Part shown: piece after piece, positions 9,268 to 56,263 of the stretch | How the letters are laid out: each line of letters begins with the position of its first letter | Numbering within the stretch: the stretch's first letter is position 1 | Notes under the pieces: generated by a model | The model's database searches: none | The model's input: the letters and a program-made list of their open reading frames with translations, nothing else | What the model was told of the DNA's origin: nothing | Translations under genes and position numbers: made by a program | NCBI GenBank assembly: GCA_000165345.1 | Contig: CM000431.1 | Location: forward strand, 1,024,001-1,088,000 | DNA: 64,000 nucleotides | Direction: 5' to 3'

Positions 9268-12200
9268 TTAAAACTCTTGGGATAAAATATTTCGTGAGAT
9301 AGCAATTGGTAATTTGTATATACTTAGGTTATCTTGATTAAGCAAATCATCTGTGCTGTTAAGCATTGTAAAGCCTCTAGGGACGTACTTATCAATTCTG
9401 TAGGCTCTATTAGATGCTTTGGACTGTATTGCAATCATAATTTGAGGTGCTTTGTTTAAAAACTTAATAGATTTAATAAATCTATCATATGAAAAATTCT
9501 CCAAAGTATGGATAACTTTTTCAATCCATTGGAATGGAAAATCAGTACCTTCAATAAATGTAAAGAATAAATTTGAAAAAAGCTCAATTTTATTAGGAAG
9601 ATTTTTGAATTTATTAATACAGTCCCTCTTAACTTTGTAGAAGAAGCTCTTATCAATAATGAATGGTGTCTCGAAAATCTCTTTTATAAATACAATAAGA
9701 AACTCAGAAAGACTTACTATATCTTTCGAGTAAGATTCGACTTGGACGACTGAAAAAGTAAGAGTAGAGTAATAAGATGTAGAAAAGACTACAACTGAAT
9801 AGTTTTTGTTTGAAATCTTCTTTAAAAATTTACTAGCCAGATCTGACAGTATAATACTTAAGAGAGTTACTAATGAAATAGTGAAAGGTGTCTTTGTTCC
9901 TATAAATAAGGCCAATGATGAAATTGACTTTTCTTCATCAATACTCGAGTATTCAAATCTATAACTTTTCCAAAGTCTAATAGGAAGGGTAGTCAAATCC
10001 AAAACCTCATAACTGTTAAAGTAATTTTCTCCTGCATGATAAATAGGAACAAGCATATTCTTAATAGAGTATTCTTTAGATTCTTTCCTAAAAGCATTTT
10101 TAAGAAGCTCATGATCCACTATTTCTGCATTATACTCATTAACTGACAAAGAAATAATACCTGAAATTATGATATTTCTTCCAAGACAATCCAGAAATTC
10201 ATTAACAACTAATCCAGCTTCAAAAGGATCAATATTGTTCATAAATAAACCCTCAACTTGTCCTTGCTTTGCAAAAAATTCACTTAGCTCTATAATATCC
10301 CGATAACTTATGTATTTGAGCTCATTTAATCTATCAAAAGGAGATAATGACTGATTTTCTGTGACAGATCGTAAAATTGTCAAAGATTTTATGATTGACG
10401 GAGTAAAGTAAACATATTGATATAAATATCTATTTACATGTTTGAATGCATCCTCAAATTGTTCAAGTGTGAAATATTTGTTTGGATGACTAAGATGTTT
10501 TGCAAATATTCTCAAAAACTTAGGAAGAACATCATGGAATCCTTTTAGGTGGATTTCAAACCCATTTGGGAGACCATTATAAGTGTAATCGTTGAAACTT
10601 GAAATCTTAAATTCATTCCTCGCAATTCTAAAGTCATATATTTCATCCTCAAGAGAATTATTTAATAAAACACAAAGGATTTCAATTGCCACTACTAGTC
10701 TTGGTAGTACTTTTAGTACTTTTGGATGTCTTCCTATTTTTGAATTGATATTTGGGGTTAGAATCCTGATTAAAATTGAAACCTCGGGGTAGGATTGTTT
10801 AACTGAATTCTTATAATAGAAGTAGACTATGTTCGAGTAAAAGTCAAAACGCTTAATATTCGCTTCATTTGATTCTTGTTCTATATTCTCACCAACAATA
10901 TTCTTAAGCATATCATTGCTATGCGTAGTCTCAATATCGGTCAAATTTTGGTAAATGCTTTTTGCAAGCTCTGAATTATTGTAGAGCTTATTTATTAATG
11001 CTCCTTTCTGATTTAAATCTGAATAATGACTTGCATCACTTTCATACCAAAAATTATATTTATTAATAATATCATTTTCCATAGAATTGAAACTTCTTAT
11101 GTTTTTATTCATGAATCTTTTAATACTCAGTATTAAAGGTTGAGGAACTATTTTTGTATCTTCATCACTTGGTCTTAAAGATAAGTCAAAAGGAGTGTAT
11201 GGGTTAAGAGTAGAAATATCCAAATTATAAGTACTTTTAATTGCAGAAAGTGATAAATTGTAGATATCTTCAAAGAATTCGCTGGGAAATCGATTAACAC
11301 AATAATCTGTGAGTAGATTCTTTGATTTGTAAACCATGTTACATTCAACAAAAGAATTTTCCTTGTTAATTTCATCAGACTCTTGATCAGAGTTTCCTTT
11401 GCCTATATCTTTTTTAATACTAGTATCTTCAGTCTGGAGTTCCTTCTGGAAAATAAATGTTAAAATTTTTATCAAGTATTGCTTAATTGTATTGTAAACC
11501 CATAGAATAATTTGAGTTACATCTCTTTTATTATTTTTAGGAGATTCAATACCAGCTGGGGTAACATTAGAGTTTAGTACATTAAATCCTCTAGAATAAA
11601 AGCTTGATCTAAATACTTTATGGCTACCTGTAATTTTTTTAATTAATAATACAGGTGTAAAAAAGAATATAGAAACTTGATCAATTTTTATTGAGCTAAT
11701 AAAAGCTTTAATAAATGAAATATCAACAATTTCCATAACTTCATCTGCATATATAATTTCCTGAGGTTTAATTCTGTATTTGCTAGCTTTGTAAACTATA
11801 TTATATGCAAGGTCTCTAGTAAATTCGGTCTCTCTATAATTGAAAATAATATCTGCTACATTTTTCGCCTCTTCTACAATTCTTTCTGATACTGGCAATT
11901 CAATGATATACTTTACTGCTGATATGACTGCTTTAACTAAATTCCACGAATGTCTTAATTGACTATTGTAGAGATCTATTGATATATCCAATGTTGAAAA
12001 CCCTTCATAATTTACTACTCCTACCTTAATTGGGTTAGAAATTCCAATAGACTTTAAGTATTTGCGTAATATTCCCTTATAATTTCCATCTAAAAGATAT
12101 TTAATATACATAGTAGGGATCCTTTTCCAATTAACAACTTGTATTTCAATTGGAAATCGGAGGTTGATTGTGTTAATCCCAGTTTTTTTAAATCTCCGTA

Positions 12201-55500: not shown

Positions 55501-56263
55501 GTAATATATCTGAAAGTCTAAAACTATCAAAATTTATATTATTAGCTAAGTTATTTACAAGTTTAGCAAAAATTTCTTCATGTATATTATCATTTGTATT
55601 TAGGTTTATAAACATATTTGCAAAAATTTTCAGTGCAATTTCAAATTCATTTGAGAGGATATCAAAATCAAATCTTGAATTGTCTCTACTAATACTTGCT
55701 CTATAACTGCATTTATGTTTCTTGATTAACAAAGCAAATTGCCTCGTAAATTTTTTCTTTAATGATCCAAATAATAATGTATAAAGAAGGTATCTAGATA
55801 GGCCAGGAATATTTTCTGGATCAGAAGCAAATCCAAAATCTAAGTTCATGCTGCCAAATGATATTTCTGTTGTCTTATCATAAACCATAAATACTTTCAA
55901 AGAGTTAGATAGCCTTAAATATCTATATTCCCTAGTACATCCAATTGGTTTTTCAAATGATTGATCATCAATCATTTCTTCCACCTGTTTGCACTTTTTT
56001 TCTGAATACATTATTTTAATTAAATCATCGTTCGAATCATTGAAATATTTTGAATTATTTTTATAAATGCTTCTTTTATCATTGATTCTATGTTTCCTTC
56101 TATCGTTTCTAACAAAAGAATTTCTTTTATTTCTTTGATTTTTTTTAGCTTTATTTTGAATAAAAGCATACTCTTGCTTTTCAAACGTGAAGCAAATATT
56201 ACAGCAAAGGATAATGGTAAAAATTAAAAAGCATGATGTTAGATACCAATACCTTTTAATCAT
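52529..56263 (-). CDS. M16 insulinase-like paralog 11 (secreted, HxxEH degenerate: GLSRYLLYT), 1244 aa.
   Basis: ATG at 56261..56263. It has a signal/anchor sequence (MIKRYWYLTSCFLIFTIILCCNICF) and the signature YRYLRLSNSLKVFMV. Confidence 0.7.
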   Translation of the reverse strand: MIKRYWYLTSCFLIFTIILCCNICFTFEKQEYAFIQNKAKKNQRNKRNSFVRNDRRKHRINDKRSIYKNNSKYFNDSNDDLIKIMYSEKKCKQVEEMIDDQSFEKPIGCTREYRYLRLSNSLKVFMVYDKTTEISFGSMNLDFGFASDPENIPGLSRYLLYTLLFGSLKKKFTRQFALLIKKHKCSYRASISRDNSRFDFDILSNEFEIALKIFANMFINLNTNDNIHEEIFAKLVNNLANNINFDSFRLSDILQEISSPTKTDNSSYDWNLLEYMQLHHLDKFKSKRLLREFFNQYYRADRMTLTILSNKTLDEQTSIVRKYFNKIRRGDSNIITRLRLPESGIKHPLYDSIGKILVFNSPRRSSLLKLIFPLNNISKIKLSSKPMFFFSMYISSKRKGSLYYYFYKHELVTEMKIYLSNSIFGYYSLIIDINLQNLGELSIIHIIQGIFSVFEMMRNSKPKLELYNQAKTLKMKRFKHSANSFIYDECKNIQDAFNILKCPPEKVLSARSIYTEYNLELHYKILSNLKPGNMLIITTFKTNEQDYFNEPPNENMVNNTKITNNSTNDSIINQTKKVNTTLCVFCQKQYLINNIHSFSSKDYLKSIDNSKGFDYSILFEGGFNNSEIMISNFTRTEYIIKNIHPFFISYFANSVNPYTAMNKFEICDPDYKFFRMKEGENYFVGIQEQDIPIRLVDAIQNLRSKKYNKIIHQDYLKDYQNIFYFPIYSTNISKSSISITISLPPNLFPEDLSFPYSPKKLEVIFSIISFLFLRSFEDIKYYYNKLSTSLSFSINTPTIFSFYTYGIILEISGITDNLPHAISTIASRIKEFPNTVKASDLTVAKDYYLTHIRNNNFEHLPAIQFQSILKILLFNQNLTTCSLINEIKEIKLNEITNAIDFLVKNGTFEGIIYGNINPIKARELLLLFFINLGRTSAEEKNINKRSNIFLKIFISFKKIFFGCFNHIKYFIDKFTGNSTLQSEPPVHLKSIPTQNITQNSLKDLQVIDLLSFKEGTNFVYFEKSKFDSFQFHTLILKICFGYFTVEIESLVDILVEMMLKKYHNEMKNENNDIFVGIKRSTFSDGIISVEIKIVSNNNLPYLVSYILNLYNNWLLRNSEITYENFILIKKFMIESLSINSNNNSIIDFKEEIHLKRYQFNRKKERIEFISQLSYTDFLIWLIAQPPKVIKFLFIIHASRSNQEEITNAYIKIPYEFERVNSTDYFFKQPNTKSFNPSQIYNYNN

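Follow-up and report, generated by a model that had tools for sequence, protein, structure and literature searches.

Why would a parasite keep a long tandem array of protease-like genes in which most copies lack the catalytic zinc site? The question is raised by a 64,000-nucleotide stretch of the Cryptosporidium parvum Iowa II genome (GCA_000165345.1, contig CM000431.1, positions 1,024,001 to 1,088,000; hereafter the window), in which twelve long open reading frames (ORFs), named G1–G12 by window order, occupy positions 9268..56263 on the minus strand (Table 1). The array is the telomere-proximal cluster of INS genes (MEROPS M16A) on chromosome 3, cgd3_4170 to cgd3_4280. The resemblance to the INS families noted in the original prediction, which had been made from the DNA without database searches, was literally correct: the array is that family's own chromosome 3 cluster. 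We consider it very probable that this cluster combines three zinc-intact members with nine secretory zinc-less members whose M16 clamshell has been retained for a use other than proteolysis. Publications of 2012, 2021 and 2025 had already described the cluster with its twelve members, the degenerate copies and their expression. Because both the locus and its catalytic degeneracy have been described, our analysis adds no new entity; its additions are the ratios of nonsynonymous to synonymous substitution rates (dN/dS), the conservation of the motifs that replace the zinc site, a duplication with zinc-site loss in C. felis, and the partial degeneracy of INS-16.

Loss of the catalytic apparatus in nine genes

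A regular-expression scan of the twelve proteins found HxxEH only in G8 (HFLEH at 73), G10 (HYLEH at 114) and G11 (HYLEH at 118), the same three genes that had been said to retain GLAHxLEH. The eight replacement strings quoted for the other genes were all recovered in the aligned HxxEH column of a 12-way alignment, but G7 has no G-L-x string and reads NSISSSDR at this position. A conserved HxxEH in a shifted position, named beforehand as a finding that would speak against the loss, was looked for, and no relaxed or shifted HxxEH was found in these nine genes. HxxDH and HExxH were present in none of the twelve proteins, and a shifted HxxEH or HExxH motif in the zinc-less genes was ruled out.

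The downstream E-x6-E, which holds the third zinc ligand, was likewise found only in G8 (EINIVENE), G10 (ELMSIENE) and G11 (ELMSIDDE); we take its glutamates to be the equivalents of E182 and E189 in human insulin-degrading enzyme (IDE). In domain 4, R-x6-Y is present in G8 and G10, and G11 has Gln in place of Arg. In the eight zinc-less genes of full length, neither this Arg nor this Tyr, presumably the equivalents of the substrate-contacting IDE R824 and Y831, is left; domain 4 itself is missing from G7. Hence, since HxxEH, E-x6-E and the domain-4 Arg/Tyr are all gone, the nine genes have lost the whole catalytic apparatus and not one motif. To judge from their sequences, they are M16 homologs by fold and not active-site members. 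The zinc-less copies could in principle still be hydrolases that use other catalytic residues or another metal, and the strong conservation of the substituted motifs across species (described below) does imply that the former active-site helix still matters. However, nothing is left of the two His, the catalytic Glu, the two downstream Glu or the domain-4 Arg/Tyr, and the replacements differ between paralogs with no common new polar constellation, which makes continued hydrolysis very improbable.

Among the zinc-intact genes, G11 (INS-16) lacks the NAYT motif that follows the zinc helix, reading NGNFETYSLRS compared with NGYTNAYTEDT in INS-15 (G10). INS-16 is thus itself partly eroded and may be catalytically impaired. 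INS-15 and INS-16 are each individually dispensable, and only the loss of INS-15 lowers parasite burden in mice (PMC11478815); the predicted impairment would fit the reported absence of an in vivo phenotype in the INS-16 knockout. The INS-15 zinc motif is given as HLIEH, which is the INS1 motif, in the INS-15 knockout paper (PMC11478815), compared with HYLEH in the window.

Conservation and purifying selection across species

Parts of the orthologous region were compared in C. hominis, C. meleagridis, C. tyzzeri, chipmunk genotype I, C. ubiquitum and C. felis. Intact ORFs of the nine zinc-less copies, conserved in length and order, were present in all stretches fetched from these six species, and in C. 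ubiquitum three overlapping loci cover the whole array. The sole copy-number differences were observed at INS-15/16, where C. ubiquitum has a single copy and C. felis has two. The residues that replace the former zinc site were nearly invariant among orthologs (for example GLSNLVQ[YH], GLATLLSE and GLSILLKN) and conserved as far as C. ubiquitum or C. felis. Hence, the zinc-site losses predate the divergence of the species compared.

The dN/dS check suggested with the original prediction was made pairwise between C. parvum and its orthologs, with NG86 for the values given here and YN00 as a second method; G6 versus C. tyzzeri gave no value with either method, and G9 versus chipmunk genotype I gave none with YN00. 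Across all twelve genes dN/dS was 0.10–0.47. When C. parvum was compared with C. meleagridis, chipmunk genotype I and C. ubiquitum, the zinc-less G1, G4, G5, G6 and G7 had values of 0.10–0.16; values from C. tyzzeri, which is very close, were noisier (0.17 for G5 and 0.28 for G7). For reference, zinc-intact G8, the flanking DNA polymerase alpha and the flanking zinc-knuckle gene had values of 0.12–0.14, 0.09–0.12 and 0.11–0.24, respectively, and five zinc-less genes were thus as low as DNA polymerase alpha. Less constraint was seen in G2, G3, G9, G10/11 and G12 (0.19–0.47). Constraint was similar in the N- and C-terminal halves of the proteins.

These data bear on the possibility that tandem duplication left the nine zinc-less genes as pseudogenes or decaying relics, to which the disappearance of all catalytic residues and the drift of G3 and G7 below Pfam detection would lend some weight. 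Base composition alone gives a stop probability of 0.083 per codon, and therefore a chance probability of 10^-21 to 10^-49 for the open frames of 558–1289 codons in G1–G12; in addition, all nine zinc-less genes have been reported as transcribed (PMC3305300). Because the ORFs and their order are conserved in six other species, dN/dS is low, with five copies equal to the flanking housekeeping genes, and the replacement residues are nearly invariant, decay is excluded and this explanation is effectively refuted, as the original prediction had held. Having lost their predicted catalytic residues yet remaining under purifying selection, the nine genes are putative pseudoenzymes.

The same comparisons bear on a reading of the zinc-less copies as host-directed effectors or antigens under diversifying selection at the parasite–host interface. 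Signal-peptide-like N-termini, the rapid evolution of G3 and G9 (the fastest of the array, with dN/dS of 0.27–0.47) and the variable repeat inserts in G2 and G9 would all be in keeping with it, but gene-wide dN/dS was well under 1 in every comparison among the six closer species, five copies were constrained like DNA polymerase alpha, and copy number and order were stable across the intestinal species examined, INS-15/16 excepted. This reading of the zinc-less copies is thus decidedly unlikely.

Family membership and domain architecture

Pfam Peptidase_M16 and Peptidase_M16_C were matched in 10 of the 12 genes, with E-values down to 1e-27. PF00675 scored over its curated cut-off in nine genes, G5 falling just under it (20.0 versus 22.3 bits), and PF05193 did so in ten; Peptidase_M16_M was matched in G10, G11 and G12, and the Pfam domain-4 model in G10 and G11. 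G10 aligned with human IDE at an E-value of 3.5e-69, and the alignment includes domain 4 (RTKKQLGY versus RTKEQLGY). Eleven genes (1085–1289 amino acids (aa)) are collinear over their full length and correspond to a four-domain single chain of the M16A type; G7 (558 aa) corresponds to the N-terminal half only. The features by which the array had originally been delineated were recovered with exceptions. A length of about 1100 to 1290 aa applies to most genes but not to G7 or G3 (1085 aa), and the N-terminal signature is weak in G3. The C-terminal motif, as [VI]P-x-[GNDE]-[FY], occurs in 10 of the 11 full-length genes; G4 reads FKLEGFNRI instead, and G7 has no such motif.

For G3 and G7 no Pfam match was found, and pairwise BLAST against the other array members was marginal. 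A hidden Markov model (HMM) built from the other ten genes scored G3 at 20.6 bits and G7 at 26.6 bits, compared with -2.2 for the best of 400 shuffled controls, and the alignments were collinear. Both proteins align with the N-terminal M16 domain region in the 12-way alignment, and both match the M16_C region of the paralog HMM and of a G12 profile. An AlphaFold2 model of G7 based on nine sequences had a mean predicted local distance difference test score (pLDDT) of 56; its top 50 Foldseek matches in the PDB were all insulin-degrading enzyme (best E-value 1.6e-10), with low TM-scores because domain packing in the model is poor. A PDB profile search from the G7 orthologs found nothing, and hhalign gave a weak match between G7 and the G12 orthologs (P 0.008, probability 4.8%), in which the expected M16_C region was aligned. 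For G3, hhalign against the G12 orthologs gave P 5e-4 over the M16_C region, the best PDB profile match was pitrilysin (E-value 0.039), and a C-terminal FIPSGY motif is conserved. The AlphaFold2 model of G3 from six orthologs was unusable (mean pLDDT 34.8), and its first Foldseek match, IDE at an E-value of 0.04, was not counted as evidence. The support for G3 is weaker than that for G7 but consistent, and both are supported as divergent members of the M16 family. Placement of the ORFs in M16, as first proposed, is borne out by Pfam for ten genes, by the paralog HMM for G3 and G7, and by the match of the G7 model to IDE.

The half size of G7 is comparable to that of an M16B subunit, and it would agree with a role of the zinc-less INS proteins as non-catalytic partner subunits of the zinc-intact ones, comparable to MPP-alpha and MPP-beta, that recognise substrate or regulate activity in secretory organelles. 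Such pairing has M16 precedents in MPP alpha/beta and the cytochrome bc1 core proteins, families that were detectable as relatives, and active and inactive genes are interleaved within the one array. However, the four domains of each full-length chain would give a closed clamshell without a partner, five different expression patterns (PMC3305300) oppose fixed stoichiometric pairs, and INS-15 and INS-16 can be lost individually (PMC11478815). Partner subunits are, on this evidence, an unlikely explanation.

Putative secretion signals

Signal peptides were judged by a hydrophobicity heuristic, namely the 12-residue Kyte-Doolittle mean within the first 35 residues. A strong N-terminal hydrophobic core (mean 2.2–3.3), rarely equalled by internal windows, was detected in 11 of the 12 proteins. 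All nine zinc-less proteins were among these, and a signal-peptide-like N-terminus, originally ascribed to nearly all degenerate copies as a secretion signal, was thus seen by this heuristic in every one. Several array proteins are called 'secreted' or 'signal peptide-containing' by NCBI.

The zinc-intact G8 has no N-terminal hydrophobic core and looks like a cytosolic active peptidase within an otherwise secretory array. An upstream extension that might supply a signal peptide to G8 was rejected, because no start codon lies between the upstream stop and the start of the ORF, and the G8 orthologs are equal to it in length. Gene order implies that G8 is cgd3_4240; in that case, G8 would be the one member for which a sharp peak at 48 h has been reported, a pattern shown by no other (PMC3305300).

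Locus identity, layout and earlier descriptions

The identity of the locus was established by several matches. At 100% identity, G3 corresponds to 'secreted insulinase like peptidase [C. parvum Iowa II]' at NCBI, and G12 to a C. parvum protein annotated as 'secreted insulinase-like peptidase'. For G11, the length of 1176 aa and the peptide 38-LRKTNNFVLKGKIG-51 are exactly those published for INS-16 (cgd3_4270). G10 is assigned to INS-15 (cgd3_4260) because it adjoins G11 and is 83% identical to INS-16. The remaining gene IDs are presumed from gene order alone, and the order and number of the genes, twelve in succession, agree with the annotated cluster.

A tandem cluster of twelve consecutive genes near the chromosome 3 telomere, cgd3_4170 to cgd3_4280, was described by Mauzy et al, 2012 as having arisen by duplication, with mostly degenerate members, and all twelve genes were found to be expressed, in five expression clusters (PMC3305300). 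HXXEH was reported in 10 of 22 INS genes by Xu et al, 2021 (PMC8092296), and a 2025 review lists 11 INS genes in the block and states that HXXEH is kept in only 10 of 22, the others being likely proteolytically inactive (PMC12688253). The array analyzed here is the same locus, with no difference of substance. The cluster span is 57 kb in the 2012 paper (PMC3305300) compared with 47 kb here, and the block holds 11 genes in the 2025 review (PMC12688253) compared with 12 in the 2012 paper (PMC3305300). G7, with orthologs that carry no annotation beyond hypothetical or signal-peptide protein, probably accounts for the latter difference.

In agreement with the twelve same-strand genes originally described, the twelve minus-strand ORFs make up 88% of the 47 kb, with spacers of 181–868 bp; the G+C content of the window is ~30%. 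The ORFs of G3, G4, G5 and G11 were initially started at TTG, and trimming to the first ATG gave the ends 21066, 25795, 30091 and 52109, the last of which agrees with the G11 end given in the original prediction. The array is flanked by ordinary genes, which encode a P-type ATPase, an RRM protein and a zinc-knuckle protein on one side and DNA polymerase alpha and a protein kinase on the other. The gene for the RRM protein (5426-7561, minus strand) contains a tandem array at 6300-7444 with units of ~102-105 bp in 8-9.5 copies and 75% matches; it lies in the N-terminal part of the protein and resembles a nucleolin-like repeat region.

Table 1 Genes of the INS array, with positions in the window, zinc-site sequences, Pfam E-values and dN/dS against orthologs.
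Gene	Gene ID	Position	Strand	Length	Zinc site and character	Pfam	dN/dS and conservation
G1	cgd3_4170 (presumed)	9268..13137	-	1289 aa	Zinc-less M16A paralog, GLSNLVQY	M16 1.6e-12, M16_C 1e-17	0.13-0.16; motif kept as far as C. ubiquitum
G2	cgd3_4180 (presumed)	13489..17094	-	1201 aa	Zinc-less, GLVSLVQE; polymorphic (EQ)n linker	M16 1.5e-10, M16_C 9e-13	0.21-0.29
G3	cgd3_4190 (presumed)	17809..21066	-	1085 aa from first ATG	GIRYFALF; most divergent full-length member	No match	0.27-0.34
G4	cgd3_4200 (presumed)	21935..25795	-	1286 aa from first ATG	Zinc-less, GVSYLITQ	M16 1.7e-10, M16_C 8.5e-12	0.11-0.16
G5	cgd3_4210 (presumed)	26327..30091	-	1254 aa from first ATG	Zinc-less, GLATLLSE	M16_C 4.5e-15, M16 6.7e-4 (20.0 bits, cut-off 22.3)	0.10-0.17; motif kept to C. 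felis
G6	cgd3_4220 (presumed)	30754..34581	-	1275 aa	Zinc-less, GLSILLKN	M16_C 1.9e-14, M16 1.4e-5	0.14-0.16; motif kept to C. felis
G7	cgd3_4230 (presumed)	35044..36720	-	558 aa	Half-length, highly divergent, no zinc site (NSISSSDR)	No match	0.13 vs chipmunk genotype I and C. ubiquitum, 0.28 vs very close C. tyzzeri; orthologs 548-579 aa, reaching C. felis
G8	cgd3_4240 (presumed)	37028..40360	-	1110 aa	Zinc site intact (GLAHFLEH, ENEF, domain-4 R..Y); no N-terminal hydrophobic core	M16 2e-25	0.12-0.14
G9	cgd3_4250 (presumed)	40894..44490	-	1198 aa	Zinc-less, GLGFYLMN; fast-evolving, lysine-rich insert	M16_C 3.5e-14, M16 1.9e-6	0.23-0.47
G10	cgd3_4260 (INS-15)	44879..48397	-	1172 aa	Fully intact M16A (GLAHYLEH, ENEF, RTKKQLGY)	M16 1e-27, plus M16_C, M16_M, PqqF-like_C_4	
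G11	cgd3_4270 (INS-16)	48579..52109	-	1176 aa from first ATG	HxxEH intact, partly degenerate		
G12	cgd3_4280 (presumed)	52529..56263	-	1244 aa	Zinc-less, GLSRYLLY	M16 4e-9, M16_C 1.5e-12, M16_M 4e-10	0.19-0.21

Duplication history, gene conversion and repeats

In a neighbour-joining tree based on Poisson distances, in which only shallow nodes were supported, every ortholog pair was grouped with 100% support. Deeper nodes had 30-46% support, and for this reason the number of older zinc-site losses among the ancient paralogs could not be counted. An earlier version of the tree was an artefactual ladder, probably since the Kimura distance is undefined at these divergences, and it was replaced. 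The two tandem INS-15-like duplicates of C. felis (15147-18677 and 19391-22957 of locus L013) are sisters with 88% bootstrap support; one of them carries GLAHYLEH and the other GLANLLKS. This is an independent, lineage-specific duplication followed by loss of the zinc site.

G10 and G11 form a mosaic, with dS mostly 0.05-0.11 at residues 250-900 and 0.2-0.9 at both ends, which suggests gene conversion between the tandem paralogs in their central part. The pattern is in agreement with the published INS-15/INS-16 similarity plot (PMC11478815). In C. meleagridis (GCA_039657295.1, 14144-17696 of locus L004), the single INS-15/16 ortholog is split into four consecutive ORFs in different frames, of which the gene caller gave only a 564-aa fragment; these frame breaks could represent real pseudogenisation or indel errors in long reads.

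Two genes of the array contain repeat inserts. A (TGTTCC)n microsatellite at 15308-15411 in G2 encodes the (EQ)n linker tract. C. parvum has a tract of 36 aa, two isolates of C. hominis have tracts of 61 and 45 aa, and that of C. meleagridis extends over 83 aa; neither chipmunk genotype I nor C. ubiquitum has one. The tract could be usable as a typing marker. In G9, an 18-bp tandem repeat at 41694-41776 (4.6 copies) encodes KTKTTN-like units inside a lysine-rich, basic insert.

A probable non-proteolytic use of the M16 clamshell

The array was built by old tandem duplications. In the explanation preferred here, the nine zinc-less genes would encode catalytically dead proteins of the secretory pathway, eight of which are of full four-domain length. 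Their clamshell would have been kept for a purpose other than cleavage; by analogy with MPP-alpha and the bc1 core proteins, it would most likely bind or enclose peptides or segments of unfolded protein. The binding or scaffolding role at the host interface suggested in the original prediction is conjectural. Individual paralogs may be specialised by life-cycle stage and secretory organelle, specialisation by stage being suggested by the five expression patterns reported (PMC3305300).

Several points weigh against this explanation. No localisation, interaction or knockout data for zinc-less cluster members, and no experimental study of any of them, were found in the literature searched, in which nothing relevant appeared for INS10, INS12, INS13, INS14 or INS17. 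The binding or caging role is drawn by analogy, and the structure models have low confidence (pLDDT 56 for G7 and 35 for G3). The catalytic inactivity of the nine proteins is a prediction from sequence alone, and the signal-peptide calls have a hydrophobicity heuristic rather than SignalP as their basis. Moreover, published dN/dS values of 1.1-1.7 for cgd3_4250, cgd3_4260 and cgd3_4280 (G9, G10 and G12), listed as C. parvum–C. bovis gene pairs, contrast with the 0.19-0.47 obtained here against closer species; we suspect that the published values above 1 are likely due to saturated dS at the larger distance.

As a tentative and more specific proposal, possible rather than probable, the zinc-less INS proteins would be a conserved set of secreted M16 'cages' in which specific peptides or proteins of the parasite or its host are bound but not cleaved. 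Such cages might work in secretory organelles or at the feeding interface, where they might act as chaperones, as decoys or as holders of cargo. If this were true, duplicated genes would repeatedly and adaptively have lost their zinc site, as the C. felis event suggests, and a defined ligand of a zinc-less INS protein would be new biology for Cryptosporidium and for the M16 family. Very few gene families have expanded in the streamlined Cryptosporidium genome of 9 Mb; the INS genes are one of them, and they have been discussed as determinants of infectivity and host range. Constraint like that of DNA polymerase alpha in some INS genes that are nevertheless zinc-less would point to an unexplored non-catalytic function. 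It also calls for caution in viewing the whole INS family as drug-targetable metalloproteases, given that over half of its members are predicted to be non-proteases.

Comparison with known M16 systems

Human IDE and E. coli pitrilysin (both M16A) share with the array the four-domain single-chain clamshell, and G10 has the HxxEH, the E-x6-E and the domain-4 Arg/Tyr of these enzymes. In contrast, nine of the twelve array genes are without every one of these catalytic residues. Most array proteins also differ from IDE in their signal-peptide-like N-termini, and they are up to ~270 aa longer.

Among apicomplexans, the Toxoplasma gondii toxolysins TLN1 and TLN4 and Plasmodium falcilysin are M16 proteins of secretory organelles (PMC8092296, PMC11478815). 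All three are described as active proteases, unlike the nine zinc-less array members. To our knowledge, none of them belongs to a tandem array of twelve genes in which zinc-less copies predominate.

Pseudo-peptidases of the M16 family have their established precedent in MPP-alpha and in core proteins 1 and 2 of cytochrome bc1. These non-catalytic M16B proteins show the M16 fold but no functional zinc site, and selection has kept them for substrate binding or a structural role. They are half-size subunits of heterodimers in mitochondria, whereas eight of the nine zinc-less array proteins are full four-domain chains with secretory-type N-termini.

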